Below, piece by piece: positions 24,901 to 62,214 of a stretch of 64,000 nucleotides of DNA. The position numbers were made by a program, and so were the translations under genes. Source of the stretch: Schmidtea polychroa (Eukaryota). The stretch spans positions 5,024,001-5,088,000 of the forward strand of contig CM097885.1 in the NCBI GenBank assembly GCA_044892525.1. The letters are read 5' to 3'. Under the pieces are notes generated by a model that had not been told where the DNA came from, ran no database searches, and saw only the letters and a list, made by a program, of their open reading frames with translations. Every line of letters starts with the position of its first letter. Position 1 is the stretch's first letter.

Positions 24901-25234
24901 GAAGAAAACAAGACTTAAAAGGAGAATTAAATTTTGAGAGTTAAAAAAGAGAATCAAAGGGAGAATTTAAAGGAACATTTAAAGGGAGAATTAAACAGAG
25001 TTCAGAACAGAGTGAAACGAGAAGTGACGTGAATCTTTTGTAAAATTGAATATAAAGTGGAAATGGAGTAAATAAATTGGTGGTCAAAGCAAATAGGACA
25101 AATCGATCAACATACCCTGTAATTGAGTAGTTGACGGCTAGTGATTATTGTTGTGGTTACAGAAAGGGCTATTCTTCACGTAGTGTCGAAATAAGCTCTG
25201 TGTGATAAATTGGTTTATAGTACTTTTGGTTGTA

Positions 25235-27307
<2,073 letters not shown>

Positions 27308-27486
27308 GACTCCACCGTTATTGTTGTATTGTGTGAGCACACACTCGTTATAATAATTAGCAATATGAATAGAGTTTTCATGGTGTATCAAATCAAAACC
27401 TTTCTTTTACATTTATAGTCTATCAACCAATCAAAATCATCCGGTATTAGTATAAATAAAACATCATATTTTAAATTATTGTAAAA

Positions 27487-28007
27487 ATGTCTCAATTTAT
27501 GGAAAATCTTTTAAGAGAACTCGTCAACAGGAATATTATGGAAAGCCTATGTTTCCTGGTCGATCGGACCGAAAAGATTATAGAAGGTAATCACATTGAT
27601 TATGACGATGTGATCAATTCTGATTGTCTCGAAACCAAAAAATTCTATTTTAATAGAATTTTTAACTGTCTATGCGACGATCAGATGAAGTGGACCCGAA
27701 TACTAGTAGGGTTCGCTTATATGAAAATAATAATCCAAAGAAGTCTATGGGACTCAGAGCACTATTATCAGTGGTCTCAAGAAGTAATACTTTTATAATT
27801 TATATTTTATTAATATTTATTTTCTAGATAATCAAGTCAAAGTTTCAACCATGGATTGAAGCCAATGGCGGATGGGGAGTACTCAATCAACTCGCCAGAA
27901 ATGCAAAAGAAATAGACGATCAGAAAAGAAAATTTAAAAACTATGTAAAACTTGCAACAGGTGTTGCTATTTTGTATATTTTAACCAGATTTTTAAATAA
28001 AAATTAA
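27487..28007 (+). CDS. Bcl-2-family protein, two exons (27487-27783, 27828-28007), 158 aa
   Basis: BH1-like DDQMKWTRILVGFAY, 44-nt GT-AG intron, BH2 PWIEANGGW, C-terminal anchor LATGVAILYILTRFL plus a basic tail. Confidence 0.85.
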
Positions 28008-28090
28008 TATAGTTATTTTTGTTTGATTTTTAAATAAATTTTTAAATAACATTTTAAATAAATTTACAAACACTAATTAACTAAGATTTA

Positions 28091-28468
28091 TTAATTAACA
28101 CATTCGCAGTCGTCATCTCCACATTTCATTATATTTTCAACGACATGATCAATACAATCATTCGTAATATTATCTTTAGATTCATCTTTAGGTTCCTCTA
28201 TAGGTTCCTCTATAGGTTCATAGATTTCCTCTTGAGTTTCTTCCTCATCAATTTCTTGAGTTTCTTCCTCATCATCAAATCCTGTATCTTGACTCTCAAC
28301 TAACCAGCCGATATTTAAGGCATTTGTAATAGATAATATATCCTCCATTTTCACACCAGATATTTCTGCTAACTTTTCCAACAAAAAGTTGATTAAAAAT
28401 TCTAAATAATAAATAATTCGGTAATTAATTAATTAATCATGTTAACCTTTTTCTACAGTCATTTTCAT
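28091..28468 (-). CDS. Small acidic protein, two exons (28468-28447, 28401-28091), about 110 aa
   Basis: ATG at 28468; a 45-nt GT-AG intron joins it to the ORF (MKMTVEKEFLINFLLEKL...). EEETQE/EEPI repeats. Confidence 0.6.
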
Positions 28469-28595
28469 CACTTTAAAACTAAATTATAAGTTTGTTTATA
28501 GATTTTCTTTGTTAAATTTGCATGTCATTTGCATTTATGTTGCAATTAATAAAGAGAAAAAACAAATCTGACTAATACATTTATTAAATATAACA

Positions 28596-29006
28596 TTAAA
28601 ATATTTGTGAAAGTCTAGCAGACATAACTTTCCAAATAGGAGAATATACATCATTATTATCAACTTTATATCCCTGGATTGCAATTGTTATATACCAATT
28701 TTCATTTTCTTTGAAAGCGATTTCATCAAAGGAATCATAAAATCTTGCATATCTATTATTGAACCATGCATGTTGATTACATGATAGATTCGAATCTATC
28801 CGTTTAAAAACATCGTCAATAGTTTTGACATCAATCATTGAAAGCGTGCCGGATAAGAATTCAAATTTAGTTGGAATTAGCTTGACTGGTGCAACCAATT
28901 TCATATTGATTTCTTCTTTCAAAAAATACATTTTGTAGTTGTGGAACATTTGAACTGGTTGTACCATTTCTTTAGGTTTTTCGGTGCTTGAAATTTTCTT
29001 GGTCAT
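28596..29006 (-). CDS. Hypothetical protein (136 aa), possibly an OB-fold ssDNA-binding protein
   Basis: Intact ORF with TATA and CCAAT motifs upstream. Beta-rich C-terminus YITIAIQGYK...SPIWKVMSARL. Confidence 0.6.
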   Translation of the reverse strand: MTKKISSTEKPKEMVQPVQMFHNYKMYFLKEEINMKLVAPVKLIPTKFEFLSGTLSMIDVKTIDDVFKRIDSNLSCNQHAWFNNRYARFYDSFDEIAFKENENWYITIAIQGYKVDNNDVYSPIWKVMSARLSQIF

Positions 29007-29352
29007 CGTGAATAATGAATAAATTTAAATGTTACAGGGTTTTTATACCTTTGACTCATGCCTATCAACCAATCAGATTATAGCATGTCTTTGTTTAAAT
29101 TGCATTCAAAATGCATTGATGTTGCATTGTCACATGTTCTATTTACAGATTTATTATTAATGTTTAAATTATTACATGTTTTGATATATGTACAGATTTA
29201 TTATTAATATGTTTCATTATTATTAATGTTTTTTACTATTATTACTATTCATATTTCTATTACTATTATTATTACTATTACTATTATTATTTCAAATATA
29301 AAACACAATAAAACACAATAAAAAAGATAAAACACAATAAAAAATACATTTA

Positions 29353-29766
29353 TTAATAACCCAAATCTACAATCTTGGAGTAGTGAAACCTTCTCAGAGT
29401 TTTCACTAACTCCCATTCGACATATCGCCGATATCGATCGGCGCAACATGAGCATCCGATGATGCACTGGTACTCTGGCTCCATTTGTTTGATGGTTCTG
29501 TTAATCTTTATATCCCACAGAAACTGGTGAAATACATCCATGATTCGAATTTGAGTCGCATAGAATATCAGATCTGGAATGATCTCAGGTTCGCGATCCT
29601 TGATAATTTCAATAATTTGAGGATAATAATATTTTATCCTTTTTATCATAACTTCTAAATATTTCTCTAAAATAATAAATAGTAAATAATGTGAAAAAAA
29701 AATTTTAAATTTACCGGAATCGTCGATATCTTTCATGAGGGTTGCAGAGCTTGGTAATTTGTACAT
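29353..29766 (-). CDS. Hypothetical Cys-motif protein; probable in-frame 48-nt intron at 29667-29714
   Basis: ATG at 29766, AT-rich GT-AG segment, CIIGCSCC motif, upstream CCAAT repeats. Confidence 0.55.
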   Translation of the reverse strand: MYKLPSSATLMKDIDDSGKFKIFFSHYLLFIILEKYLEVMIKRIKYYYPQIIEIIKDREPEIIPDLIFYATQIRIMDVFHQFLWDIKINRTIKQMEPEYQCIIGCSCCADRYRRYVEWELVKTLRRFHYSKIVDLGY

Positions 29767-29839
29767 AGTGTTGAAAAAATGAATTCTAAACAAAAACCGT
29801 TTGTTTAAATCAATCAATAACCAATTAGAAATTAACCAA

Positions 29840-30277
29840 TTAGAAATCGACCAATGAAATTATCTCATTTCGAACATTGTCAACAAATTCTCTATACTCC
29901 AAATTTCTCAACCCCAACATGACAACCTTTCCACTAGCAAACACGTTGACACATATAGGGTTATATTTTAATAGTCTTAGTGCCGGAAACAATTCCGGTT
30001 CAAACATACAATCACATTTTTTCGACATGTTATATAGATTGATACTATGTCCCATATCCATAGTAACGGTAATTGATTGGATTTTAATATTATTTATTCG
30101 ATATTGTAATTTATTAATATCCAAAGGTTTCTTACATCCCATGATTCTGCATTTACCAGTCTTGAAAAATATTATCGGATATTTCCCACTTCTATCGATA
30201 ATTTGCTGGGGTTTCCCTGGTGGGAACCTCATATTCGATACATCAAAATTTCCTCGATAATTTATATTTGCTAACAT
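29840..30277 (-). CDS. Divergent TATA-binding-protein-like protein (145 aa)
   Basis: Two TBP repeats: IIFFKTGKCRIMG, and KIQSITVT...INL...FEPELFPAL...NVFASGKVVMLG. Canonical TBP has IFSSGKMVCTG, KIQNMV, YEPELFPGL and IFVSGKVVLTG. Confidence 0.85.
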   Translation of the reverse strand: MLANINYRGNFDVSNMRFPPGKPQQIIDRSGKYPIIFFKTGKCRIMGCKKPLDINKLQYRINNIKIQSITVTMDMGHSINLYNMSKKCDCMFEPELFPALRLLKYNPICVNVFASGKVVMLGLRNLEYREFVDNVRNEIISLVDF

Positions 30278-30376
30278 TATTAAATCATTTATGAAAATTA
30301 GTCTTTATATACAAATTGAGCACGAGTTCATTAAATCATCGAATATAAACAAATACACATTTATAAAATATTTGAA

Positions 30377-30595
30377 ATGGAATTAAGAAATGATGCTGTA
30401 TACCAAATCGTTGGTCCGAGTGGTAGTGGAAAAACATTATTTGTTTGTAAATTACTAAAATCCAATTTATTCAAATCAAAATTCAACAGGATTTATTGGC
30501 ATAGGGGTGCTGATGAAGAACATGGATTAACTCAATCAAGTTTCTGTAAATTAAAAAACATGAAAATAGTAAAGGGATTCGATAAAAACTGGTCG
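30377..30595 (+). pseudogene. Truncated A32/FtsK-like packaging ATPase, fused in frame to the next gene
   Basis: Walker A IVGPSGSGKT near the N-terminus. Only about 73 residues precede unrelated sequence, and no Walker B follows. Confidence 0.75.
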
Positions 30596-30640
30596 ATAAA
30601 AACACCATCTAAAAAACTTGTAACTGAAAATTTCTCTGCA

Positions 30641-31039
30641 ATGAATCTTATTTCGAAAAATCCTAAACCTAAACGTAAAACCCGTAAAACCCGTAAAACC
30701 GGTAAAAAAGTAGTTAAAAATCATCGCAGTTTTCCATTTTTTAATGCATTGTTAAAGGCTCCGAGTATGAAAAGAATGAATATATTGCAATCATTCCCAA
30801 ATTTTGTTGTCGATGATTTACTCAATATTATACTTAAAGTAGTCAAAGGCAAAATTAAAATCAGTAAATCAAAAAAGCATTTATTGAGCAAACATAGGAA
30901 ACCTTTATTATCTTTAGTAAATAATAAAAATCGTAAGCAAATGAGGAAAATTATATATAAACAACAAGGTGGATTTATTGGTGCCTTGATACCTCTGGCA
31001 TTATCATTATTAGGTGGAGTTGTAGGAAATCAATCATAA
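30641..31039 (+). CDS. Basic Polinton core/virion protein with a C-terminal QxGG-hydrophobic segment
   Basis: Lys/Arg-rich; ends KQQGGFIGALIPLALSLLGG, an adenain-type cleavage site followed by an amphipathic/hydrophobic tail. Confidence 0.7.
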   Translation: MNLISKNPKPKRKTRKTRKTGKKVVKNHRSFPFFNALLKAPSMKRMNILQSFPNFVVDDLLNIILKVVKGKIKISKSKKHLLSKHRKPLLSLVNNKNRKQMRKIIYKQQGGFIGALIPLALSLLGGVVGNQS

Positions 31040-31042
31040 ACA

Positions 31043-31270
31043 ATGGGTGCTAATCCTTCATTGCCCGACATTAAATTTAATTTTAAATCTTCTTGTTGTA
31101 ATGGAGAAGATTTGGACGAACCCAGAAGACGAAGCCGGTTTCGGTGGAGTGGCAAAATTAAACAAAAGAGTTCCGAATTCGAAAAAAGAAACCCAGAAGT
31201 GGTTATCAGATCAGCTTGCGTACAGTTTGAACAAACCAATGCGGAAAAGATTTCCAACAAGAGCGTATAA
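31043..31270 (+). CDS. Candidate overprinted N-myristoylated small protein
   Basis: MGANPS start in acaATGG context, 3 nt after the upstream stop. Overlaps the integrase 5' end in another frame. Confidence 0.4.
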   Translation: MGANPSLPDIKFNFKSSCCNGEDLDEPRRRSRFRWSGKIKQKSSEFEKRNPEVVIRSACVQFEQTNAEKISNKSV

Positions 31271-31488
31271 AACATTTGGTATTGACGATTTATGGCAAAT
31301 GGATTTGATGGAGATGATACCATATTCGAAAATTAACAATGGGAATAAATATATTTTAACATGTATTAATGTATACAGCAGGTTTGCACGAGCAATACCA
31401 GTCAAGGCAAAATCTGCAGAAGAAATGTCCAAGGCAATTAATATTTTATTTAAAGATGGACATCCTAATAATTTGCAAACAGATTTAG

Positions 31489-31553
<65 letters not shown>

Positions 31554-32183
31554 TTAGGTAAAGAATTCTACAATAGCAAAGTTAAGCAAATCCTCGATAA
31601 ACTGAAAATAAATCACTACTCGGTACATTCTCAATACAAAGCTGCCCATGTTGAAAGATTTAATCGAACATTGAGAGATAGATTAAAGAAATTGTTCGTG
31701 CATCAAGGTAATAAAAAATGGGTAAATGCTTTACCGAAAATAATAACAAGTTATAATCATTCATCACATCGAGGACTGAATGGATTGAGACCGGTTGATA
31801 TTACATCAAAAACACCATTATCTAAAAAATCTGTAAAAATTGCAAAACCTAAATATAAAGTCGGTGACCATGTTAGAATTAGTAAAATTAGTGCATCACC
31901 ATTTATTAAAAATTTTGATACAAATTGGAGTGATGAAGTCTTTGTAATTTCAAAAATAAATACTAAACAGAATCCTGTAATGTATGTCATCAAAGACAAT
32001 GATAATAATATTGTACAGGGGAAATTTTATGAGCAGGAATTACAAGTCATTCCTCCCCCAAAAGTATTTAGAATTCAAAAAATATTGAAAACTAAAAAGG
32101 TCGGTAAGGATAAACAATACTATATCAAATGGCACGGTTATCAAAACCCGTCATGGATATCGTCAAAAGACCTAGTAAAATGA
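31101..32183 (+). CDS. Retroviral-like DDE integrase with a C-terminal chromodomain; 69-nt intron at 31489-31557
   Basis: WQMDL, QTDLG|KEFYN after splicing, VERFNRTL, YKVGDHVRI, GKFYEQELQ, YYIKWHGY. Confidence 0.93.
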
Positions 32184-33184
32184 ATTTTTATATTATTTTA
32201 CCTAGCAATAGCTGTCCACTTATTCATCCAGATAATAAAGCCAGCAAATTCAGGGTCAATCTTCAAAATCCGATATATTTGGATAATAGCTGGGAAGTTG
32301 CTCTGTTGGATTTTACATTTGTATACCAAGCCTTTCCATTTTATAGTAAGGCTAAAATTGGATACAAAAAGAATGAGTGGCAGGATAGATTATTGTCTAT
32401 GATCATTGATAATGCAGATGATGAAGTTCGGTTGTCTAACTCAACTGATCCAGCTGTGAAAATGTATATTAACCATTCATATATAGTAGTTGAATGTAAA
32501 CATTATCCTTTTACTGTAAAATTTGATAGTTTGGAAATGGCAAAACGATTGGAATTAAAAACCCAAAGTCATAAAGTTCTTTCCGATAAATTCACTATGC
32601 TACGACCGGGATATTCCAAAACTGTACAGCGATTTGAACCAATTTTATTTACAGTTTCATATCCGGGTATAACGTCTGGTACATTTGAGTTCAAAGATAA
32701 TTTATACATTTCGAAATTGGATGAATTACAGACATATTTAAAACAAAGTGGTTTATTTAAATCATTGGAAATATCAGACAGATTCAAATTCAGTTTGAAT
32801 CCCGAATTTACTGAAATTACTTTTGATGCAAATCTAATAAAAACATTAGGATTATCAAAAGCAACATATGCTCAAGATGATCAAGGTACCCTAGCTCCGA
32901 AAATAATTAAACTTCACCAACAAATGTTCATCTATAGTAATATTGTTGATCCTGTAATTGTTGGCGATTCTTTGGTCCCACTCCTGAAATCTGTTTGGAT
33001 TGAAAAATATGAACATGATGAAGTAGTCAATATAAATATCGATAATCCCATGTATTTACCTGTGTCAACCTCATGTATAAACAATATAGAAATAAATATA
33101 CGTGATGATTCTGGTAAATTAATCGCATTTCCAAAAGATTCAAAAACTCATTTAACATTACATTTTCGTAAAGTAGATGGCTAA
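32180..33184 (+). CDS. Minor capsid (penton-like) protein
   Basis: MNFYIILPSNS...NKASKFRVNL...WEVAL and MFIYSNIV...VGDSLVPLL...IEINIRDDSG...LHFR. ATGA overlap with the integrase stop. Confidence 0.88.
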   Translation: MNFYIILPSNSCPLIHPDNKASKFRVNLQNPIYLDNSWEVALLDFTFVYQAFPFYSKAKIGYKKNEWQDRLLSMIIDNADDEVRLSNSTDPAVKMYINHSYIVVECKHYPFTVKFDSLEMAKRLELKTQSHKVLSDKFTMLRPGYSKTVQRFEPILFTVSYPGITSGTFEFKDNLYISKLDELQTYLKQSGLFKSLEISDRFKFSLNPEFTEITFDANLIKTLGLSKATYAQDDQGTLAPKIIKLHQQMFIYSNIVDPVIVGDSLVPLLKSVWIEKYEHDEVVNINIDNPMYLPVSTSCINNIEINIRDDSGKLIAFPKDSKTHLTLHFRKVDG

Positions 33185-33542
33185 TTCGGATATTATAAGT
33201 ATGTATAGTGGTAGCCAATCTGGCGGTGAATTACCATATTTTATTGGTAAACAGTACGGATCAGGATGGTTGAGAACAATTGGTAGATTTGCACTTCCTA
33301 TTCTTAAACGTATTGGTAGTTTTGGTATGAAAACTGCTAAAGATGTTATTATGAATGAACAGAAAATATTACCATCTCTAAAATCAAATGCTTTAGCAGA
33401 ATTAGGGAAAGTTTTACCCGGGGTTGCAGGTATGTTTCAAAAACCAGCTCCAGCTCCAGCTCATGCTCCAAAACGTAAAAGACATGGAATATCACGTATA
33501 AACAAACGAATGAAAGGCCATGGAACTATATTTGCAAAATGA
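33177..33542 (+). CDS. Core protein with QxGG/QxGxG motifs and an amphipathic helix
   Basis: QSGGELPYFIGKQYGSGWLRTIGRFALPILK and a basic C-terminus. Lies between mCP and MCP, as is typical for Polintons. Confidence 0.75.
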   Translation: MANSDIISMYSGSQSGGELPYFIGKQYGSGWLRTIGRFALPILKRIGSFGMKTAKDVIMNEQKILPSLKSNALAELGKVLPGVAGMFQKPAPAPAHAPKRKRHGISRINKRMKGHGTIFAK

Positions 33543-34762
33543 TTTGTGGTAAATCTGAATTATGTATATTTGATAGACCGTCGCCCCAGGCTGTAATAGA
33601 ATTTGGGGCGTTTGAGGAAGTTTTTCCAATGAATTCAATTACTGATAGTAGAAATGATATAGAGTTTTATATTAATGGTTCGCAAACTGAATATTTAGAT
33701 TTGAACGATACTTTATTGACTGTTCAGATCAAGGTTATAGATAAAGATAAAAAAGCTTTGGGTGATGCTGCTGATGCAATACCGAACAATTTCATGTTTC
33801 ATACTCTTTTTAAAGATGCTGTGTTGGGATTTAATAATATCAAGATTGAAGGTGGTAATAATACATTCATTCACAAGGCTTTGATAGAAACTATTTTAAA
33901 TTACAATTCCGATACTAAAAATACATGTCTTACTCCAATGGGATATGCTGCAACCGACGATGAAAGAAAAAAGTGGATTAAAGGCTCAAAAACATTCACC
34001 ATGTGTTCATCGTTACAACTCGATTTTATGGATCAACCGAAATATTTGCTTCCAGGAGTTAATGTCCACATTCGATTGAAAAGATCCGATTCTGCACTAA
34101 CTCTTACTAGTGCTACAGGTGCACCAATATGTCAATTAGTTGATGCAAAATTATTGGTGAGAAGAGTTCGAGTAGACCCCTCAGTATTAGCTGGTCATCA
34201 ATTGGGTCTTAATTCAAAACATGCAATTTATCCATTAAAAACAAAGGAAATTGTACAATTTGCTATTGCTAAAGGTGCTTCATCATTCTATAAAGAACAA
34301 ATATTTGGTGACAGAAGAATGCCTAATTTTATTCTGATAACATTTCAAAGTGAAGCACAATATAATGGATCATATACTGCGTCCAGCTCAATTTTCAAAA
34401 ACTTTGGTGTTACATCATTGACTTTGTCGAAAAATACTGATTATAGAGAAACATATATTCAAGATTTCGAGAATGACAATTACTGCGCGACATATATGCA
34501 GAGTATTGTTAGAAATCTCGGTTATTTAGATAAAAATTTGAATTGCGGAATAACACTAGAAGAATTTAAAAGCAAATACCCATTTTTCACATTTGTTCTA
34601 GCTCCCGATTTTGATTTAAATCAAAGTCAATTACCTCAAAATGGAAATTTACGACTGGATATAAAGTTTGCAAAAGCTATTACTGAACCAGTACATGTTA
34701 TAATATATGGAGTATTTGAAAATGAAGTTCAAATTACTGCAAATAGAACAGTGTTGGTATAA
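33539..34762 (+). CDS. Major capsid protein (double jelly-roll)
   Basis: KSELCIFDRPSPQ, IEFYING...EYLDLNDT, QPKYLLPGV, GNLRLDIKF. Intact, 407 aa. Confidence 0.92.
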   Translation: MICGKSELCIFDRPSPQAVIEFGAFEEVFPMNSITDSRNDIEFYINGSQTEYLDLNDTLLTVQIKVIDKDKKALGDAADAIPNNFMFHTLFKDAVLGFNNIKIEGGNNTFIHKALIETILNYNSDTKNTCLTPMGYAATDDERKKWIKGSKTFTMCSSLQLDFMDQPKYLLPGVNVHIRLKRSDSALTLTSATGAPICQLVDAKLLVRRVRVDPSVLAGHQLGLNSKHAIYPLKTKEIVQFAIAKGASSFYKEQIFGDRRMPNFILITFQSEAQYNGSYTASSSIFKNFGVTSLTLSKNTDYRETYIQDFENDNYCATYMQSIVRNLGYLDKNLNCGITLEEFKSKYPFFTFVLAPDFDLNQSQLPQNGNLRLDIKFAKAITEPVHVIIYGVFENEVQITANRTVLV

Positions 34763-35174
34763 ATGTATACAGAAACACAAAAAGTTATCATGGAGTAAGT
34801 TGTTTTTTATACTCTGGATTTATTTAAATAGTTCTGTTCAGGTCAATAAAATCGGAAAACAGATATTGGGAAATGAATTTGTTGGAGTTTTTCCTCTTGA
34901 TAAAATTCCATATTTGAGCAATAATCAAGCAATAATCGTCAATACTCAATCGTCTCATCTTGGTGGAGAACATTGGATAGCTATATATGTGAAACCTGGT
35001 AATATATTCGTGTTCGATCCTATGGGTTTCTATTACCCAGCTTTGTTGATATCAAAACTACAAACAATGGGAAAACCTATTGTGTATAATAAAACTATGT
35101 TTCAAAATCCTTTGACCCAAACATGCGGTCAACATTGTTAAGCTTGGTTATTGTACAAAAAATTTGATGTTTAA
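34763..35174 (+). pseudogene. Adenain-like cysteine protease; probable 37-nt intron at 34795-34831; nonsense codon at 35139
   Basis: GEHW, FDPMG and FQNPLTQTCGQHC catalytic motifs. TAA occurs where the paralogous copy near 62185 has TTA. Confidence 0.8.
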
Positions 35175-35266
35175 AGAAAAAAAATGTTTAATAAATTTGA
35201 TGTTTAATAAATGTATCCTTTCCTTTGTTGTTGTGTTATTATTATTAATATTATTATTATTATTAA

Positions 35267-35321
<55 letters not shown>

Positions 35322-35682
35322 ATTATTAATATTATTATTATTGTGAAAAATATTATTATTTTTAATTAATTTTATTATTATTCTAATAAATATTATTATT
35401 TGTAACATAAAGACTGCCTTTGCATGAGGCATGCACAGTGCAAGTTAACAAAGGCATGACTAACAAAGGCAGTCACATGTAATTCTGACTGATTTACATT
35501 ACATACATGCATGCGTGTGATTGGTTGAGAGAGTAAAATATTCAATGTATATGTGTGTGTGTCTATATTCTCATTGGCTGGGACAGGAAAATATTCATTC
35601 TCTTTATAAACATTGACAAATCTAAAATTTGTCACAATTATTTCAAATTTTTCAAATTTCGATTTCAATTTTAAAAATCTAA

Positions 35683-37345
35683 ATGGCTAACAATAATAAA
35701 AATGGAATTCTAAGAAATCTTTTGACGACAATGGGTAATTTATTTTATTTTATTTTATTATATTTTATTTTATTATTATTTTAGAACCATTCGATTGGTA
35801 CGATGTAACGGAAGATGACTCGATATTAACAGTGGATAAGATCTTCGGTAAATTTATTATTATAATTTTTAATAAATTATTTTTTTTTTCAATTCAGAAA
35901 ATGCTTCAAATAGCGACGATGATGTCGTCTTTATCGGGGAAAGTAATGCTCCTAATAAGATCTTTGGTAAATTTATTATTATTTTTTTATTAAATTATTT
36001 TTTTTTTTCAATTCAGAAAATGTTTACAATAGCGACGATGATGTCGTCTTTATTGGGCAAACTGATGCCCCTAATTATGCCCCTAATTATGCCCCAGTTC
36101 TCAAAGAAAAAAGTAAATTTTATTATTATTTCTATTAAATTAATTTTCATTTCAGAAAATGTTTTAAATGTTGATATTGACGAAGAAGAAATTAATGTCC
36201 TCGCATCGGATGATGGTGAAATCTGTGAGAATGATGGGCAAATCTCATCGGATGATGATCAAATCTCAGAGAATGATGGGCAAATCTCATCGGATGATGA
36301 TCAAATCTCAGAGAATGATGGGCAAATCTCTGAGAATGATTCCGACATGGAATCAAAATGTAAGAAATATTTATTTTTATATATATATATTTTGTTTTTT
36401 ATTTATATGTTAAATTTGTAATAACTTATTTAAATATTTTGATAAAAAACTTTTTTAAATATTTTAATAAAAATTATGATGAAACTTCTGAAGAAAATGA
36501 TTTTATGATTTATAATGAAAATATACCGAAAAATTATGAAGAAAAATGATTATGTTTTATAAAGAAAATGATGAAAATGATGAATTTATGATGAAGAAAA
36601 TGATGAAAATAGGATGAAAATCAATTATGATGAAAATATGACGAAAATTATGATGAAAATGATTTACAACCAAAATTATGATGAAAATGATTTATGATGA
36701 TATAATGAAAATGAATTATGATGAAGATATGACGAAAATTATGATGAAAATGATTTATGATGATATAATGAAACTTCTGAAGAAAACTATTTTATGATGA
36801 AAATTATTTATACCGAAAATTATGATGAAAATGATTATACTAAGTTTCTGAAAGTTATTATTATCAAAATATTTAAAAAGTGATTACAAATTATGGTTAT
36901 AAATCCTTGTAGTTTGCAATGTGCATCTACAATAGTTAAAATAATAATAATAATATTAATAATAATAATAATAATAATAATGTAGTCTACAGTGAGCATG
37001 TAGCTACATAGTAGTCTGCAGTGAGCATGCAGCTACTTTTCTTTTATATAATAATAATAATATATAAATAATAATTAGACCCCGTCTACAGTAGTTTGCA
37101 GTAAGCATGCAGCTACATAGTAGTCTGCAGTGAGCATGCAGCTACTTTTCTTTTATATAATAATAATAATAATAATAATATAAATAATAATAATAATAAT
37201 ATAAATAATAATAATAATAATATATAAATAATAATATAAATAATAATAATAATATATAAATAATAATCAGACCCTGTCTACAGTAGTTTGCAGTAAGCAT
37301 GCAGCTACATAGTAGTCTGCAGTGAGCATGCAGCTACTTTTCTTT

Positions 37346-37393
<48 letters not shown>

Positions 37394-37848
37394 TATAAAT
37401 AATAATCAGACCCCGTCTACTAAAATCTCTCTAATATTCTATCGAATATATTAACCTATTTTCTATAATGATTTATCATCATTTGTTATTTAATTCAAAT
37501 GAACTATATAACAAATGATGATAAATCCTTGTAGAAGTAACAATTAGTTTCCTATATAGAAAAAAAACAATAAAATTTTAATTTTATTATTTAACAGGTA
37601 TACTATACCCGAACTATTGTCAAACATCAATTGGACATAGTGATAAATGTCATAGAACAATGACAAAATATTACCGAAAAAAGTTTAATTCGGTCAACTT
37701 TTTTATATGCCCCAAATGTGTAACGAGCGAAAAAATAAAATATAGGGAATTTTTTAATAAACATCATAGTCACTTAGGGCAATTTTCGATATCAAAAAAT
37801 GTTTTATTTAAAAAAATAAATAAAAAATTAAATAAAAAAAAAAATTAG
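35683..37848 (+). CDS. Spliced acidic, SIM-rich N-terminal region, probably the 5' exons of pPolB (35683-35734, 35785-35847, 35898-35966, 36017-36112, 36156-36359, 37598 onward)
   Basis: Five consecutive phase-1 GT-AG introns give one open frame. It stops at 37848, in an A-run where a 1-nt shift would enter the pPolB frame. Confidence 0.65.
36982..37340. repeat. Paired quasi-palindromic repeat TAGTCTGCAGTGAGCATGCAGCTA (six variant copies here, two more at 41875-41939)
   Basis: Seen directly; pairs are separated by (AAT)n. Confidence 0.8.
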
Positions 37849-37904
37849 AAAATAATTTACAAAAAAACTTACAAAAAAATTTAGAAAATAATTTACAAAA
37901 AAAT

Positions 37905-40900
37905 TTGCAAAAAAATATTAAAAAAAATAAAAAAAATATTATTAAAGATTCAAATATTAAAAAAGATGCTATTAAAAAAGATACTATAAATATTATTAAA
38001 AAAGATATTATAAATATTAAAAAAGATTCGATTAAAAGACCTGCTGGTTTAATTAAAAATTGCATTCCTAATAAATTATCGCGACCTGAAGTGATAGTCA
38101 TCAGCAAAGATGAATGTGTAGCTTCAACATCGTTTACACACCAAGCACCTATTACACAACACGCACCCATTACACAACAAGAAGTGATAGTCATCAATGA
38201 TGAATGTGTAGCTTCAACGTCTTTGAACATATGCCAAATAGGCGGCTCTTTGTTTGAACCTATGGTAGAATCCGATTTGAACGGATCGCGTAAAACTTTA
38301 AGATTTGATATTAGAAATCAAAACTTAGTAAAAATAGCCCTAACATCAAAAATTGAAGATAGATTAATACAGGAAATAGAAAAGATGGGCAATGTAAAAA
38401 TTCAATTCACAATTTTAATTAAATTTGAAAAAGATGGGGAGATCCGGGATAATTATTTTTCCAACAATGCTCAAGTTTTTACATCAAACTTTATAAACGA
38501 GGGGGTGAGCAAATTAAATGAAAAGATTGAGCAATTCACCTATTTAGGAAGCGGGTGGCGAGTAATGAATATTTTAGAAATAGATTTTATTTTAACGAAA
38601 TACGCACCCGTCAGTAGATTATCCGGACATAGCTATATAAAAACCCCATCAGCATTAAAATTAAAACATGCAATAATTAATGTAAAAAACAACGACCATA
38701 AGTGCTTCTTGTATAGCATTCTTGCACTTTTAAAAAGAGAAGAAATAGGTCGTAATCACCAAAGAGCCGCCAAATATATAGAATTTTTACCTCTATTAAA
38801 TTATGACGAAGACACTGATTGCCCGATGAGGCTATGCAACATTCCCAAATTTGAAAGAAAAAATAGAGATTTAAACTTGAGCATAAACGTTCTGTCTTAT
38901 AATCCAGCCAGTTCTGATTTAGATATTTCTGAGGATTATGTAGCTCACCACCCTCATCTTAATATAGTACATCGCTCCAAGGTTATAGACGGTAGACCAA
39001 TTTATTTATTACTTTTGAGTAATAAAGATAAATATCATTATACAGCCGTGACAGACTTGGACAAATTAATGAATTGTCATGAAAATGAAAATGTAAATGT
39101 TCAAATAAGGTGTAACTGGTGCCCACATTGTTTAAATGGCTTTAGATATAAGAATGCTTTCGATCAGCATGTTGCTCTATGCTGTAAAAATCAGACTGGC
39201 ACAACTTTGTATACACTTCCTAAAAATAAAGATTTATTATTCACAGATTACGCAAAAACAGTTACACCTCCCTTCGTAATTTATGCCGATTTTGAATCGG
39301 TTTTACCAGAACATGAAACATATCATCAAATACATTTACCCATATCAGCAGGTCTTTTATTAATTAATAATTATACACACACTAAATTTTATTATTATTT
39401 TTTTGGACCTAATTGTATTTTGGATTTTTTGAGGAAAGTGGAGGAAATTGCTGTCACAATTGTCCTGCCATATTATGATCTTGAAGGTCATAAAGGTATG
39501 TCTACTTTGTCTTTTGCTCAGGAGCGTGCCTTTCGATCTTCCACTATTTGTTATTTGTGTAAAAAATCTATTATTAATCCTGTGAGAGATCATTGCCATT
39601 TTACAGGTAGATATGTCGGAGCGGCATGTAGGAAATGCAATGTCTCTCGCAGGATTAATAAATTGTTACCTGTTGTCTTTCATAATTTACGAGGCTATGA
39701 CCTCCACCATATTTTAAAACATGGTCTCAGTGATTTTCCCCTTTGGGAACTTAATATTATACCTACCTCTACAGAAAAATTTATATCTTTAATTGCATAT
39801 ATTAACAAATTGCCTGTTCGTTTTATTGACAGCATGCAATTTGTTAATTGTTCTTTAGCAAAAGCTGTGAAAACCTTAACTACTTTTCCTTTGACTTCGT
39901 CTGTCTTTCAAGGGTCGATGATTCACTCTAAAGGTATCTTTCCATATAATTTCGCCACTTCTTTAGATGTTCTTGAATCGACTTTAGAATTACCTCCTAT
40001 TTGGTCTGATGTTACGGAAGATCAGTACGCTGAGGCTCAACTAATTTGGAGTCAGCATAACTGTAATAATTTGTTAGATTATATGTTAATCTACTTAAAA
40101 TTGGACGTATACCTCCTCGCAGATTATTTTCAGCAATTCCGCGGTAAGGCAATTGCTTACAATGGTCTGGATCCTCTTAATTTCTACGGGATTCCCGGTA
40201 TGTCATGGGCCTCAGCGCTTATGACATTAACGGAACCAATAGAACTTCTGCAGGACATGGAAATGTATAATTTCTATGAGGGAGGTATCCGGGGTGGGTT
40301 AACATTTGTTAACAAACATTACACGGCTACTTCAGATGATACAGAATTATTGTACATTGATATAAATAATCTGTATGGTTGGGCTCTTAGCCAAAATCTT
40401 CCGTATGGTGATTTTTCTTGGGTGAATAATAACTTGAATGATGTTTTACTTGAATGTATGAACACGGATATTGATAACCTTCCATATGGGTATACTATGG
40501 AGGTCGATATCGATATTCCGGAATGTGTGCATGACTTTTTGAATGATTTTCCGCTTGCTCCGGAAAAGTTGTGCCCGCCTAATTCAAAAGTTGAGAAGCT
40601 TATGCTTACGCATTGGCCAAAGAGGAACTATGTTCTTCATTGGAGGCTTCTCAAATTGTATATAGAATTAGGTGCGGTTGTTGTAAATATTCATAGGTGT
40701 ATAAAGTTTAAACAAGGACCTATCTTTAAATCCTACATAGACACCAACACCACTTTACGATCTCAGTCTACTAGTGAGATATATAGGGACTTGTTTAAAT
40801 TGTATAATAACTCTCTTTACGGTAAATCGGTTGAAAATTTGAAAAAAAGAATGAATTTGAGGTTGTGTAATTCATCCGAAAAGATGATAGTATACTCCTC

Positions 40901-41654
40901 AAAGCCGACTTTCAGAAAGTCCATAAGAATCGATAACGATCTGATTGCGGCACATTTGGAAAAAGATGTGATTTGTTTAGACAGACCTAGCTACATTGGT
41001 CAAACAGTACTAGATCTGTCTAAACTGCGGATGTACCAGCTCCAATATATTGATTTGGAGAAGTACAGACGCCAATATAAATGTATCATAAATATTATTG
41101 CCGGTGATACCGACAGTTTCTTTTTGGAAATAAAAAATTTAAAATTAACAACTTTATTACCTCAGATGATCTCTGATAATTTATTGGATACGTCAAATTA
41201 CGATCCAACCCACCCCTTGTATAGTAGGAACCTTGACTCGGTCATCGGGAAGTTTAAAGATGAGAGCAAGGGATTAGGGTATTCTGAATGGGTTTTCTTA
41301 CGCCCTAAATGTTATAGTCTTTTAGGTAGTAAGGAAACGGTAAAAGCGAAAGGGGTTAAATTACCAGGGACATCAATAAATCACGAATCATATCTAAATT
41401 GCTTTCATTCAAATCAGGTGATTTCTGTACCGCAGACTAGAATAGGTACTAGAAATCACCAACTTTTTACTTTTAAAAATTCGAAAATTGCCCTAAGTAA
41501 TAATGATGATAAGCGCGCGTGGCTAGGAAAAAACTTAAGTTACGCATTTGGGCACTATTTAGGAGTTGACGAATTAAGCGAATATGATGAGGAATTCGGT
41601 CCAGCTCCAAGTCCCAGTTTTGACGACAGCGAATGGGACGAAGATCAAATTTAA
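37905..41654 (+). CDS. Protein-primed family B DNA polymerase with an EndoVII/HNH-like zinc insert
   Basis: IYADFES, CYLC...VRDHCHFTGRYVGAACRKCN, FHNLRGYD, YIDINNLYG, KLYNNSLYGK, AGDTDS, GKFKDE, LRPKCYS, KAKGV. Confidence 0.96.
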   Translation: MQKNIKKNKKNIIKDSNIKKDAIKKDTINIIKKDIINIKKDSIKRPAGLIKNCIPNKLSRPEVIVISKDECVASTSFTHQAPITQHAPITQQEVIVINDECVASTSLNICQIGGSLFEPMVESDLNGSRKTLRFDIRNQNLVKIALTSKIEDRLIQEIEKMGNVKIQFTILIKFEKDGEIRDNYFSNNAQVFTSNFINEGVSKLNEKIEQFTYLGSGWRVMNILEIDFILTKYAPVSRLSGHSYIKTPSALKLKHAIINVKNNDHKCFLYSILALLKREEIGRNHQRAAKYIEFLPLLNYDEDTDCPMRLCNIPKFERKNRDLNLSINVLSYNPASSDLDISEDYVAHHPHLNIVHRSKVIDGRPIYLLLLSNKDKYHYTAVTDLDKLMNCHENENVNVQIRCNWCPHCLNGFRYKNAFDQHVALCCKNQTGTTLYTLPKNKDLLFTDYAKTVTPPFVIYADFESVLPEHETYHQIHLPISAGLLLINNYTHTKFYYYFFGPNCILDFLRKVEEIAVTIVLPYYDLEGHKGMSTLSFAQERAFRSSTICYLCKKSIINPVRDHCHFTGRYVGAACRKCNVSRRINKLLPVVFHNLRGYDLHHILKHGLSDFPLWELNIIPTSTEKFISLIAYINKLPVRFIDSMQFVNCSLAKAVKTLTTFPLTSSVFQGSMIHSKGIFPYNFATSLDVLESTLELPPIWSDVTEDQYAEAQLIWSQHNCNNLLDYMLIYLKLDVYLLADYFQQFRGKAIAYNGLDPLNFYGIPGMSWASALMTLTEPIELLQDMEMYNFYEGGIRGGLTFVNKHYTATSDDTELLYIDINNLYGWALSQNLPYGDFSWVNNNLNDVLLECMNTDIDNLPYGYTMEVDIDIPECVHDFLNDFPLAPEKLCPPNSKVEKLMLTHWPKRNYVLHWRLLKLYIELGAVVVNIHRCIKFKQGPIFKSYIDTNTTLRSQSTSEIYRDLFKLYNNSLYGKSVENLKKRMNLRLCNSSEKMIVYSSKPTFRKSIRIDNDLIAAHLEKDVICLDRPSYIGQTVLDLSKLRMYQLQYIDLEKYRRQYKCIINIIAGDTDSFFLEIKNLKLTTLLPQMISDNLLDTSNYDPTHPLYSRNLDSVIGKFKDESKGLGYSEWVFLRPKCYSLLGSKETVKAKGVKLPGTSINHESYLNCFHSNQVISVPQTRIGTRNHQLFTFKNSKIALSNNDDKRAWLGKNLSYAFGHYLGVDELSEYDEEFGPAPSPSFDDSEWDEDQI

Positions 41655-41980
41655 ATAGAAAAAACTTTATATTTTTGATTTATAAAAACTTGTATAGTGA
41701 TTTCATGATTTATAAAAAATTGTATAGAAACTTTTATTTAAAAACTTGTACAAAAACCTGTATATTGTATAAAACTTGTATTTATATATACATATTCAAT
41801 AAAATTTTTAATAAGATTTTTTAAGTATTTGGTGTTTTATTATAATTTTTTTATATTTAATGGTGATTTTTATATAGTCTGCAGTGAGCATGCAGCTATA
41901 TGTTTTTTTTTATATAGTCTGCAGTGGGCATGCAGCTATATCAATGAAATAATAATAATAATAATATTAATAATATTAAT

Positions 41981-42053
<73 letters not shown>

Positions 42054-42061
42054 TTAATAAT

Positions 42062-42122
<61 letters not shown>

Positions 42123-42206
42123 CTTTAAACAGGTTGCAAAGGGTACTAGTCATGCTTATTATTGTTATACATTTGATGGTTACATTTTGAAAGCTCTATT
42201 TTGATT

Positions 42207-42632
42207 TTTAATAAATCAATATGTGTTTGTCCGAATACAGCCAAGTTGATGGATATTTTATATATTCTCGATAAACCAAAATGGTCAAAGCATCCAGGAA
42301 AAAGAATATCTCAAAGATTGGAGAATTTAGAAAACAGTTATGAACTAACATTTGAATATATACAAAATATAAAAATTAAATTGATTGATCATATTGAGGT
42401 TTTCAATAACTCTATTACTGAAAATAAAAAGAATATGAAGATTATTGATAAGAAGCATGATTATTTGTTAAAAAAGATTGAATTATTATTAAGAGAAATT
42501 CAAACAATCAAAGGATCAATAGAATATCTGAAAATCAATTCAACGTTACCAATTTCTAACAATAATGCTGCGAATAGAAGTGCATCAATATTTAGTTTAC
42601 CTTTGTTAATTTTACATTATTTTATTGTTTAA
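42207..42632 (+). pseudogene. 5'-truncated TIR copy of the GPI-anchored coiled-coil gene
   Basis: Same protein as 26881-27381 from FNKSIC onward, but without the ATG or signal peptide. Confidence 0.8.
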
Positions 42633-42757
42633 ATAAATGTATGTTTTGTTGATTTGTTGAGCGTGACCAGTACCCTTGTGAGCATTACCCATAGGGGGAC
42701 AAAATATTTTGTCGGATAGACTCAGAGTATATAGACTCGGTGTATATAGATTAATAC

Positions 42758-42916
<159 letters not shown>

Positions 42917-43072
42917 GATATATGGCTCATTCGAAAGGTCTTGGATTGAGCTTTAAAATGAGCTATCGATTATTAATTTTCGTTGGCGGGAACTTTGAAA
43001 AAATTAAATATAAAATAATAATATTTTTAAAAATAATAATAAAAATAATAATATTTTTTAAAAATAATAATA

Positions 43073-43605
43073 TGACCTTGATGAGTCATCGCGATGGCTC
43101 ATATGACCTTGGGAATGACCTTGGATGAGTCATGTGACCTTGAAAATGACCTTGATGAGTCATAGGATGACTCAGATGACCTTGAAAATGACCTTGAAAA
43201 TTTTGATGAGTCATCGGATGAGTCATATGACCTTGAGAATGACCTTGATGAGTCATAGGATGAGTCATATGACCTTGAAAAAATTTTTCAGGGTCAAATG
43301 AGTCATACTATGAGTCATATGACCTTGAAAATGACCTTGATGAGTCATATTATGAGTCACATGACCTTGAAAATGACCTTGATGAGTCATGGTCTTTGTT
43401 TAAATGTCCTTGAGAAATTTTTTTTGACCTTGATGAGTTATATTATGAGTCACATGACCTTGAAAATGACCTTGATGAGTCATCGGATGAGTCATGGTCT
43501 TTGTTTAAATGACCTTGAAAAATTTTATGAGTCATAGGATGACTCATGGTCTTTGTTTCAATGACCTTGATGAGTCATATGTCTTTGTTTAAATTTGACC
43601 TTGAA
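43073..43605. promoter_or_regulatory. Mirror-image AP-1/NR-site array in the right TIR (about half the length)
   Basis: Repeated ATGAGTCAT and TGACCTTGA. Confidence 0.65.
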
Positions 43606-46600
43606 AAAAAATGTACTTTTAGACTTAGAATATTTTTGAAAATCTTACCGACGGGGGGGAGGGGGGGTACTGTGCTAGCGGTGCCCTGTGCCAGCGGTGC
43701 CCAATCCATCTACTGTTGTAATATAAATCTGTACAATACCGTGTGGATATTAATAAAGCTTATCGTGTTCGAGAGTGTTGAATTGTGAATTAATAAACAC
43801 GCTATGGAGTCAGAGTAAAAGTTTGAATTTACAAACATTGTCACCAACCCAATAACCCAACATATCGATACTACATTTAGAATATTTCAATAGCACTGAT
43901 TATGAGCGCGCTTTACTGCCGACTACTTGATTTTCGAATGCGTTAGATTTCTTTACTACATTCAAAAGCATGCAGAAAATATGAAAAGTTTACCGGTCAG
44001 TTAAGAAAAAACAAGTTAAGTATAATACAAAATAGCTTAATGTGGCAACAGAGTTTATTCATAAAACTGTCGGCTGAAATAAGCAATGAAATAAGCCACA
44101 TTTTATCCAATAAACTAAAAGCTTTTTTGACGGTAATGTAATATAAGAATGTCTCGAAATAGTCGCTGGTCGAATTGATGAAATGACAAAAAATTCGCGA
44201 TCAATTTAATCAAACTTAGTCATACATATGAATATCTTTCTATTTGTTTGGTTGAATCCCCACGTATAACTCTGATACTTGCTAATTTTGTTAGTGGCAT
44301 GAACACAGCATTGAACGTAACCGAAGAATTTGTTGGGCTGAGCCGAAAGATAGCTGGGAAATCAGGTTAAACTTAACTAAAGAAAAATAAAAAAATAAAA
44401 TAAATAGATCGAGGAATAAAATGGAATAGAATATAAGAAAAGCAATAATTAGAAAATAAGAATTAAAACAAAAAACATAAAAATAAGAACAATTAAATAG
44501 GACAATAGAATGACGAAAAATAACGTAAAAGGTAGTAGATAATAAGGAAATTAAGGAAAATAAATAAAAACATAATTTTAATAAAGAAAATAAGAAGAAA
44601 TAACCCAAAAACAAGGAAAATAAATTAAATAAATAAAATAAGGCGGTACTCAATTCTGATTGGTCCGCATAAACAAAAAATACCTATATAAGTAAACAGC
44701 AAATTCACTATAATCAATGTTAAACCAAACCAATTATAGGTAAGAATAGTATTAACTATATGAAATAAATGTTAAACCAAACCAATTATAGGTACTCGAC
44801 AATCAGGAAAACCAAACCATACTCAGACGACTACTAGGGACAGTTCTACAGACTACTCATTCATATAACCGATTAGATCAGTTTATATTTCGGCTCAGCC
44901 TTTGGAACTACAGAATTTTTCAAATAGTAAAGTAAGGATATATTGCTGTTATGAAATTTGTTTTGAAGGATTTAAATATTTCTATTATAATAACCTAACT
45001 TTTGAATAAAAAACTTCTCCATTCGATTTCAATTTTTTAATGATTTTATAGTTCATAAATTAATTTAAAGGTTAATGATATATAAATATTTATGTTATGT
45101 TTTGTCATCGAACGTATTGATTATGCTAAAATTATTGGTATTGAGAAACGTGGAGTTGAGGAGACCCACGCCATGGCATGAGGAGCCTTAGGGAGCTCAG
45201 CCGGCGGGTGTGGATCTCTTCAATCACGCAGCTGACGTGGGCCGGAATGTGGGGGCTTCCTCACGGGTCCGTCGCTGAGGGAAATGAAATGCTGCAAGCA
45301 CGGGTTTAAAGTACAGAGGAATATATTCCAATATTGAAAAGTAGAGCAAAATTGAATTGAAAATGACTGAGGTGGCTACAAACTCTTAGTAAACATCACA
45401 CTCTGAAATTTCATCCGACATCAGAAATCGTATATTGACATCAACTGACATTCTATCTTTTAGCAGAAAAATATTTTTCTATCAAAACTTACTGCGTACA
45501 AATAGGTTCATCAAATGCGAAATCGGAATATAGAGAGCATAAATAAAGACTTATTCAACAAATGTTTTGTAGTATAAATATAATTGTCAACAAACGCTGT
45601 AATTTTTCCATTGCTTCTGAAAATCCACGATAGCGGCAACGCGAGGTTCTTTCTATAAACGACTCTTTCGACCAAAATAAGAGAGATTTCTGTTGAATGA
45701 ACTGCTGGGGATATTTCCCGAAATCACAACATCCAAGTAGAAAACCGGAGGGAACTGCACATCGCGAGAATAAAATTCCAACGTTCACGCGCGGTGAGAA
45801 TTACTCATAGAGAACATATTGAATAACTAAAATAATTCTAACTCGCAGTGTGAGACGATCAGCTGCAACCCGTTGACATAGATAGTAAGAAGCAGACAAG
45901 GCAAATCACACGCATTGCCACATATAAATACACACTGACATATGCCGCATGCATCCTTTTCCCAGCCCGCTAATGACGGTGAGAACAAAAATTGAAGCAC
46001 ACGCTCATGACATAATTATCTCCAATAGATATGTATCTTTCCGATTCATGCGGCTAATGATTTCTACGAGTGATTCATGCGTCGTCGGGTGACTGTTAAT
46101 AATCGACTAAATTTTATAGGTTGAGTGCACCAATAGACTCCATAATGAAAAATAAATAAATTGATTTTTAGGATGGGGATAGAAATCTGATCATACGCGA
46201 CTTATTAAAAATCTAATAGTAGCACGTTGATTAAACGGGTTTTCTGAATTTAATATTCAAATATGAGTTACAATTTGGGGCCATTAATTTAAGGATCGTT
46301 CACGCGGTACTGGAGAATTTTGTTTTACGTTTTTCAAAAATAAATACCTGTAGTCGAAAAGCGATGTGCAAAAATGAGCATTAATTACTCAATCATGCAA
46401 ATATTCCTGATTCTTCCTAAACCATTTTTATGGTAAATTGTAAATCTAATGTCCATTACGTCAATACATTCGCGAGTCATTTTTCACGTAAATATTTGAA
46501 AATCTCAGATAACGGTAGGTAATGAATATTTTAAGTATAACCATAAAATTTTGGCAGAGTATTATCCAAATGTTGATTTCTCTTACACCCTAAATAGACA

Positions 46601-61898: not shown

Positions 61899-62214
61899 TG
61901 GAAAACAAATATTAGGAAATGAATTTGTAGGAGTTTTTCCTCTCGATAAAATTCCTTATTTGAGCAATAATCAAGCCATAATCGTCAATACTCAATCGTC
62001 TCATCTTGGTGGAGAACATTGGATAGTTATATATATGAAACCTGGTAATATATTCGTGTTCGACCCTATGGGTTTCTATTATCCGGCTTTGATGATATCA
62101 AAACTACAAACGATGGGAAAACCTATTGTGTATAACAAAACTATGTTTCAAAATCCATTAACTCAAACATGCGGTCAACATTGTTTAGCTTGTTTGTTGT
62201 ATAAAAATTTTTAA
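61899..62214 (+). pseudogene. 5'-truncated adenain-like protease of the second Polinton
   Basis: Highly similar to 34850-35174 and has an uninterrupted C-terminus, CGQHCLACLLYKNF. Confidence 0.85.

Follow-up and report, generated by a model that had tools for sequence, protein, structure and literature searches.

Viral Bcl-2 proteins, spliced or with an altered BH1 motif, are an established concept, and Bcl-2 cargo of Polinton-type elements has already been reported. Homologues of Bcl2 and IAP are described among adintovirus genes (Starrett et al. 2021, PMC8502044); at least three Bcl2 labels stand in the supplementary maps of that study, near its cavefish and Steinernema entries, and in the accessible parts of the paper these genes are annotations without a functional test. 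Adenoviral Bcl-2 homologues are described as having neither NWGR nor a clear GGW in BH2 (PMC7199394), and E1B-19K is reported to inhibit Bax and Bak (PMC11209288). The viral Bcl-2 gene vNr-13 of herpesvirus of turkeys (HVT) has two exons and was first predicted by ORF callers as a truncated intron read-through (PMC7199394), and cellular pro-survival Bcl-2 genes are described as carrying an intron directly after the GGW of BH2 (PMC8998228). Substitutions of the BH1 glycine are known from Boo, Trichoplax Bcl-2L4 and adenoviral or murine herpesviral homologues (PMC3542614, PMC8998228, PMC7199394). Among planarian mobile elements, Burro LTR retrotransposons are reported to carry a BCL2-like domain in a giant polyprotein (PMC6431247).

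Here, we describe a gene from a 64,000-nt stretch of the Schmidtea polychroa genome (the window) that is a real, probably spliced and divergent member of the Bcl-2 family carried by an abundant Polinton. Like the adintoviral Bcl2 genes, it belongs to an element with pPolB, integrase, capsid module, protease and ATPase; unlike them, it is apparently split by an intron and has KWTR in BH1, and the accessible parts of PMC8502044 neither list a planarian nor refer to splicing. With E1B-19K and other viral Bcl-2 proteins it shares a compact, divergent make-up, the same broad virus lineage and, as in adenoviral homologues, a BH1 departing from NWGR (PMC11209288, PMC7199394), whereas it keeps the BH2 GGW that the adenoviral proteins are without (PMC7199394). 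HVT vNr-13 provides a parallel for the two exons and for the read-through miscall by ORF callers, yet it keeps NWGR and the exon structure of its host orthologue, while here BH1 is altered and the predicted intron lies 16 codons upstream of the GGW boundary (PMC7199394). The order of BH3-like helix, BH1, BH2 and hydrophobic tail is that of A1/Bfl-1, Bcl-xL and schistosome Bcl-2 (PF00452), which also give the best sequence matches; compared with cellular pro-survival Bcl-2 (PMC8998228), however, the gene is shorter, its BH1 Gly is replaced, it is continuous after GGW, and all its scores are weak. That continuity, together with a break 16 codons earlier, points to capture via cDNA followed by intron gain, or to a host paralogue of another structure. 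Burro is likewise a planarian mobile element with a Bcl-2-like module, but an unrelated retroelement in which the module is part of a giant polyprotein (PMC6431247). Bcl terms do not occur in the accessible parts of PMC11071296, PMC8097293 or the nematode Polinton preprint, nor are Polintons or adintoviruses mentioned in those of the vBcl-2 review PMC11209288; a literature search by title or opening, with subscription papers outside its coverage, returned no description of a spliced Bcl-2 gene in a Polinton. Given the published adintovirus Bcl2 genes (PMC8502044), the spliced vNr-13 (PMC7199394) and the known losses of the BH1 Gly, as far as these sources were accessible, the original prediction overrated the surprise of the locus. 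On its sequence, what differs is the position of the intron relative to the conserved GGW boundary, the BH1 variant, and a carrier element with intron-like segments.

The gene and its flanking signals are laid out as follows:

27451..27457, + strand: TATA-like box TATAAAT, 36 nt 5′ of the ATG
27487..27783, + strand: exon 1 of the Bcl-2-like gene, 99 codons, with a degenerate BH3-equivalent helix and BH1
27688..27699, + strand: BH1 core KWTR (for NWGR), aligned to the NWGR of A1 and Bak
27784..27827, + strand: predicted phase-0 GT-AG spliceosomal intron of 44 nt, from its composition and stops in all frames
27828..28007, + strand: exon 2, 59 codons plus stop, with BH2, linker and predicted tail anchor
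27852..27875, + strand: BH2 motif WIEANGGW, from sequence and alignment to the BH2 of Bcl-xL
27951..27995, + strand: short hydrophobic C-terminal segment flanked by basic residues, a predicted tail anchor by Kyte-Doolittle hydropathy
28033..28038, + strand: candidate polyadenylation signal AATAAA, with a second at 28057; a weak signal in AT-rich DNA

The open reading frame from the ATG at 27487 spans 103 codons and ends, as the original prediction had it, at a stop at 27798. Codon 99 is directly followed by a GT at 27784, and a TAG closes the segment at 27827; this 44-nt stretch is 91% A+T and is interrupted by stops in every frame, and the exons have 35% and 31% G+C. The frame of exon 2, which has no ATG of its own, opens exactly at 27828, and joining the two exons yields a predicted product of 158 residues in which BH2 is uninterrupted after GGW. 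The hydropathy of the tail reaches 1.81 in a 15-residue window (at exon-2 residue 42) and only 1.19 in a 19-residue window. Near the junction, six GT-AG pairs keep the frame open, and 27784/27827 is the sole one with a T-rich acceptor that also preserves the coding helix; because the other five pairs are frame-open as well, these sites are the best fit rather than a proven one. A donor at 27706 was judged less likely, since the helix after BH1 would be deleted, as were acceptors at 27836 or 27842, which have no T-rich tract directly before them. The TATAAAT box is a weak signal, as the AT-rich element contains 27 such sites.

Searched separately against the 24,736 Pfam families, both exons matched a single family, Bcl-2 (PF00452): exon 1 at profile positions 12-66 (E 0.01, 16.8 bits) and exon 2 at positions 86-100 (E 0.34, 11.9 bits), each below the curated cut-off of 31.4 bits. 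The two matches are collinear along the profile, and the chance of exon 2 matching the family of exon 1 is, by arithmetic, about 0.34/24,736, or roughly 1 in 70,000. In a relative at about 62% identity (P0004, an unnamed ENA entry), exon 1 matched PF00452 at E 8e-4 and 20.4 bits, again below 31.4. Matches to PDB sequences point the same way: all 46 rows for exon 2 are Bcl-xL or Bcl-2 chains, although highly redundant ones (best E 0.074); for exon 1, 8 of 13 rows are A1/Bfl-1 or schistosome Bcl-2, four falcipain rows being noise; and a profile of seven exon-1 sequences placed six A1 chains on top (E 0.027-0.038), with Bcl-2 proteins in 8 of 13 rows. For P0004, A1 and Bak account for 8 of 9 rows, 7 of them weak matches to human Bak. 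In the ESM Atlas, the top three clusters for exon 1 bear Bcl-2 (0.93, 0.91 and 0.91), with 11% poxviral Bcl-2-like members in one of the 0.91 clusters and a cluster bearing E1B-19K at 0.86; all 10 named matches fall in one family or clan, at a recognition of 2030, below the mark of 2300. Exon 2 gave no usable match there. A structure model of exon 1 only was all-helical and of low confidence (pLDDT 57, pTM 0.34); used as a Foldseek query, it had schistosome Bcl-2 as its top match and Bcl-xL in third place, at E values (2.9-3.5) short of significance, and nothing clear emerged from the viral and VIA fold searches. Given the predicted splice, BH1, BH2 and the hydrophobic C-terminal segment follow one another in the expected order. 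Taken together, the sequence makes membership of the Bcl-2 family highly probable in our judgement. The original claim of a Bcl-2 homologue is thus borne out by the sole, collinear Pfam family of the two exons, at weak scores below the cut-off; of the two checks proposed with it, the Pfam search named Bcl-2 alone, sub-threshold, while the low-confidence exon-1 model produced no significant fold match.

Splicing at the predicted intron is very probable from the sequence. The layout that had been predicted, a 44-nt intron adding BH2 and a tail, is present in the DNA (GT-AG ends, an open frame, WIEANGGW and a hydrophobic end), but the 27783/27828 junction by which splicing was to be recognised is not among the 15 of 43 joints listed for the runs X1, X2, X4 and X7; none of the 14 runs available is recorded as RNA. 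The joints listed all stem from one deep run, X7, at a depth of at least 339, and a joint from a shallow run, the kind presumed to be RNA, would rank below them. Two X1 contigs that start exactly at 27828 might be read as a fork between spliced and unspliced forms; we did not count them as support, because their common end at 27975 would also arise from a simple variant bubble that begins 30 nt later. When the 18.5-kb carrier element was scanned on both strands for short GT-AG segments of high A+T between flanks richer in G+C, four came up, 27784-27827 among them, whereas 100 block shuffles gave a mean of 0.13, a maximum of 2 and never 4. As the thresholds were set after this intron was known, the test speaks for the rarity of such segments and is not an independent discovery; the scan also missed the intron-like segments of the integrase and ACBP genes. 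Segments of the same style are found in the element (GT-AG, 43-69 nt) and in the flanking host ACBP gene (a 49-nt intron).

Related copies place the boundary at the same residue. Six related ORFs, at 63-98% identity, can be aligned to exon 1 as far as residue 99, beyond which they run into short tails that differ in length and sequence. In P0004, the read-through tail starts with Gly and not with the Val expected from a phase-0 donor, which would put its donor one base later or at another site. The intron may have slid by one base in this relative. Among the 40 of 194 substitution rows listed, 17 fall in sense codons of the exons, none of them creating a stop and 7 being silent when taken singly. 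Two more affect the stop codon (28006 and 28007) in one X1 contig, which also has a 1-base insertion at 27989, so the last codons of that copy differ. Of 15 indel rows, 12 are listed; these leave exon 1 untouched, a +1 and a -1 change at 27916/27919 compensate each other, and the final 8 codons hold two +1 changes. In protein collections, whose entries are gene calls that ignore introns and here comprised only intron-read-through ORFs, exon 1 matched near copies alone (1 of 1 candidate; 1 representative), exon 2 matched nothing, and longer forms of the product numbered 0 among 495 candidates. The sole match of exon 1 in viral contigs (L001) was set aside as a chance match to a phage DNA-methyltransferase-like ORF, and a metagenome scan with A2 gave 0 of 215 stretches.

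KWTR at 27688-27699, reported in the original prediction in place of NWGR, is read there indeed and is invariant in all seven aligned copies, including one at 63% identity. It retains the Trp and Arg of NWGR and replaces Gly with Thr, and thus departs from the canonical pro-survival XWGR. Solved complexes show the BH1 Arg paired with the BH3 Asp of the ligand, which is also contacted by the Gly amide, and in Boo a combined Gly-to-Ser and Arg-to-Gln change is reported to abolish BH3 binding (PMC3542614). The present gene resembles mouse Boo/Diva and Trichoplax Bcl-2L4 in having the BH1 Gly replaced (by Ser in Boo and Arg in Bcl-2L4; PMC3542614, PMC8998228), the latter change being read as loss of the groove (PMC8998228), but it differs from Boo in keeping the BH1 Arg (PMC3542614). 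Retention of Arg alongside the Gly-to-Thr change in 7 of 7 copies suggests a groove that is narrowed and not necessarily dead. The BH3-equivalent helix, in a register extended from the A1 alignment, has Val or Ile where Gly is expected, and its Asp varies (D/E/N); in that register, the canonical BH3 motif of the Bax/Bak/Bok subgroup (Leu-x3-Gly-Asp) is absent, and pro-apoptotic members are described as requiring a BH3 (PMC7022251). With the BH1 Trp and Arg, BH2 and the tail kept and the BH3 Gly-Asp signature missing, the anatomy would be that of a membrane-anchored pro-survival protein and not of a Bak-like killer.

The gene is carried by a young Polinton/Maverick element of the adintovirus type, with the following parts:

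25235..43714, unstranded: Polinton/Maverick (adintovirus-type) element carrying the gene, 18.5 kb, with AGTAG...CTACT termini
25235..27307, unstranded: left terminal inverted repeat (TIR), partner at about 42206-43714, with tandem repeats and an ATT microsatellite
29840..30277, - strand: compact TBP-fold gene (Pfam TBP, E 1.6e-15)
30377..31039, + strand: packaging-ATPase-like start with Walker A (Pox_A32, E 0.013, residues 10-40 only)
31101..32183, + strand: retroviral-type integrase with chromodomain (Pfam rve, E 1.1e-5; Chromo, E 0.0013)
31489-31557, + strand: predicted in-frame 69-nt GT-AG intron, almost all ATT repeats, in the integrase core
33539..34762, + strand: putative major capsid protein, by size, position and gene order, with no Pfam match
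34704..35141, + strand: adenovirus-type protease frame (Pfam Peptidase_C5, E 6.6e-6), with a stop just after the QHC motif
about 35684..36359, + strand: five-exon acidic gene with near-duplicate exons and GT-AG introns of 50, 50, 50 and 43 nt, start approximate
37836..41654, + strand: 1272-codon polymerase frame, whose only Pfam match is Endonuclease_7 (E 0.0013)

Polinton ends are recognised by long TIRs, AG...CT termini and a 6-bp target-site duplication (PMC8097293), and all three are found here, the duplication at 25229-25234 and 43715-43720 and the inverted arms being 97-100% complementary. The Polinton gene set is likewise present, with integrase and protease identified by Pfam, the ATPase start only weakly so, and the polymerase and two capsid-position ORFs recognised by size, order and motifs without Pfam. 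In the polymerase frame, the motifs are those that we take to be of polB (pPolB). The ATPase frame is apparently truncated after Walker A and merges, without a change of frame, with a basic ORF unrelated to it, and the frame of the protease comes to a stop after QHC; for these reasons, this copy may depend on other copies and may be non-autonomous for particle formation. The capsid protein has three relatives among 141 in metagenomes (58-59% identity, on contigs too short to show neighbours), and viral contigs yielded 0 of 37 for the capsid and 0 of 5 for the integrase. The family itself is very abundant, as run X7 gave 31,286 contigs over 2.4 kb. While the original prediction called the gene viral, and its context is indeed virus-like, its carrier is an endogenous, very high-copy element of the Polinton/adintovirus type in an invertebrate genome. 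At least six intron-like segments occur in the element, whereas no introns were observed in vertebrate Mavericks as described in the accessible part of PMC8097293. The 69-nt integrase segment, which ORF callers translate as an isoleucine run, is probably one such intron; in the five-exon gene, which has a TATAAAC box 5′ of it at 35605, one common phase is open through all five segments, and segments two to five each have a length divisible by 3, a start at 35702 having been dropped as out of frame. TATAAAC boxes lie at 30344, 30956, 33076, 33497, 35605 and 38492, some just 5′ of structural-module genes. TATAAAC precedes the ATPase and major capsid genes, and the Bcl-2-like gene has TATAAAT instead, a weak hint of an early gene.

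We moderately favour the view that the gene encodes a spliced, tail-anchored pro-survival viral Bcl-2 with narrowed BH3 selectivity; its splicing, localisation, partners and function we infer from sequence anatomy, family similarity, genomic context and conservation among copies, all of which are directly observed. According to this scenario, a Polinton would have captured a compact Bcl-2-family gene, which host RNA polymerase II would transcribe and from which the host spliceosome would remove the 44-nt intron, of a size that the host itself uses. The product of about 158 residues, with its BH1 Arg for the BH3 Asp and its intact BH2 but no canonical BH3 of its own, would fold as a Bcl-2 helical bundle, which its short tail with basic flanks would anchor in the outer mitochondrial or the ER membrane. 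Its action would most likely resemble that of E1B-19K, restraining host Bak/Bax-type effectors or BH3-only proteins, so that a cell with a de-repressed, replicating element would survive, and the protein would serve as a spliced early accessory factor. The Gly-to-Thr change probably narrows the range of fitting BH3 helices, leaving few host targets and perhaps allowing escape from host BH3-only antagonists. That exon-1 similarity of the seven copies ends at residue 99 counts for this pro-survival reading, as do the collinear Pfam matches, the PDB and ESM Atlas matches, the further intron-like segments of the element and the ACBP gene, the lack of new stops among the substitutions listed, the published adintovirus Bcl2 genes and the Bax/Bak inhibition ascribed to E1B-19K. 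Against it count the family scores (16.8, 11.9 and 20.4 bits), every one below 31.4, and a tail that is short for a membrane anchor, and likewise the ESM Atlas recognition under its mark, the junction missing among the joints listed, the displaced donor of P0004, the loss of BH3 binding in Boo, and the late insertions and altered stop of some copies.

The same features could be accommodated by a spliced membrane protein of Bcl-2 fold whose BH3 groove is non-functional, as in Boo, and which plays another role for the element, for instance in autophagy (Beclin-1), in ER/mitochondrial calcium or dynamics, or as an innate-signalling scaffold in the manner of poxviral Bcl-2-like proteins. We regard this as rather unlikely, although it draws on the beta-branched Thr that all seven copies have in place of the BH1 Gly, on Boo, which with its altered BH1 is reported to bind no BH3 motif (PMC3542614), on the groove loss associated with the Gly change of Trichoplax Bcl-2L4 (PMC8998228), and on the poxviral members of the 0.91 ESM Atlas cluster. 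The BH1 Arg, lost in Boo, is invariant in the present copies, BH2 and the predicted tail anchor are kept, and adenoviral homologues without NWGR are still described as blocking Bax/Bak (PMC7199394, PMC11209288), all of which counts against this reading. An opposite role, that of a Bak/Bax-like effector or a dominant-negative decoy for lysis and release or for tuning host turnover, is very improbable: the weak matches of P0004 to human Bak and the capsid-module genes of an element that may need egress speak for it, whereas the Val/Ile at the Gly position and the variable Asp of the BH3-equivalent helix are at odds with the BH3 that pro-apoptotic members are said to need (PMC7022251), and the gene sits among regulatory accessory genes and not behind the TATAAAC box of the ATPase and major capsid genes.

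It is also improbable that the locus is an unspliced relic, the remains of a Bcl-2 gene that an AT-rich insertion disrupted, yielding the truncated 103-residue product or none. The missing junction among the joints listed would fit such decay, as would the damaged look of other genes of this copy (ATPase and protease) and the exclusively intron-read-through ORFs in protein collections, though such gene calls ignore introns. A relic would, however, sit poorly with the canonical GT/AG ends and the host-like size and composition of the segment, with a boundary common to a relative at about 62% identity, with the conservation of both exons across many copies, and with the presence of five or more further intron-like segments in the element.

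As an abundant, conserved and probably expressed example in an RNAi-tractable animal, the gene could serve to ask whether endogenous Polintons act as viruses that manipulate host cell death. It also adds a natural BH1 variant, with Arg kept and Gly changed to Thr, to the material for understanding BH3 selectivity, and it indicates that annotation by ORFs undercounts the accessory genes of Polintons in which mini-introns of host type occur. The low G+C, AAT microsatellites, short introns and TRAF-type genes of the window are in keeping with a planarian host. A Maverick expansion has been reported in Dugesia (bioRxiv 10.64898/2025.12.11.693146), and Schmidtea Polintons are described as PIWI-silenced and de-silenced on differentiation (PMC8532177). 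A broader speculation, which we hold to be quite unlikely as a whole, is that the Polinton lineage filling this flatworm-like genome is a host-spliced, nucleus-adapted parasite whose many Bcl-2 copies modify the death threshold. The intron would then have been gained after capture, at a site unused by cellular pro-survival Bcl-2 genes; the Bcl-2 copies would act together when Polintons are de-silenced during differentiation, and their Thr-bearing groove would block host Bak and ignore host BH3-only sensors. Should this be true, Polintons and Burro, which also carries BCL2, would be two unrelated mobile elements that converged on protecting host cells in an animal of constant turnover. As the host is a planarian, RNAi makes the idea testable in vivo, and our literature search found no such test of a Polinton accessory gene.

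Several neighbouring features deserve mention. Head-to-head with the Bcl-2-like gene, 105 nt apart, lies a 166-aa ORF (26881-27381, - strand) with an N-terminal hydrophobic signal-like stretch, a coiled-coil body (weak Pfam) and a hydrophobic C-terminal end, which resembles a secreted or GPI-anchored protein; most of it is in the TIR, and it is repeated without its start at about 42206-42632. The TIRs (25380-26400 and 43070-43580) contain closely packed tandem arrays in which TGACTCA and CAAGGTCA words abound, which we take to resemble AP-1 and nuclear-receptor half-sites. On the + strand at about 37450-37860, 5′ of the polymerase, small frames with paired Cys/His and a GT...CAG segment may be spliced zinc-finger leader exons. 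Beyond the element, two host genes are found:

50211-51104, + strand: ACBP-domain gene with coiled coil and membrane tail
54213-55681, + strand: TRAF-type gene with RING, zinc finger and MATH, in two long frames

The introns of the ACBP gene measure 49 nt and about 98 nt; a 33-nt reading of the latter was dropped, as 98 nt fits the frame better. Degraded pieces of related Polintons lie at 61276-62220, 62292-62403 and 63593-63656; they comprise minor-capsid and protease sequence (83-92% identity) brought together by loss of the major-capsid region, as well as TIR-proximal pieces. A second protease fragment among them (about 61895-62220) reads on where the 34704-35141 frame ends.
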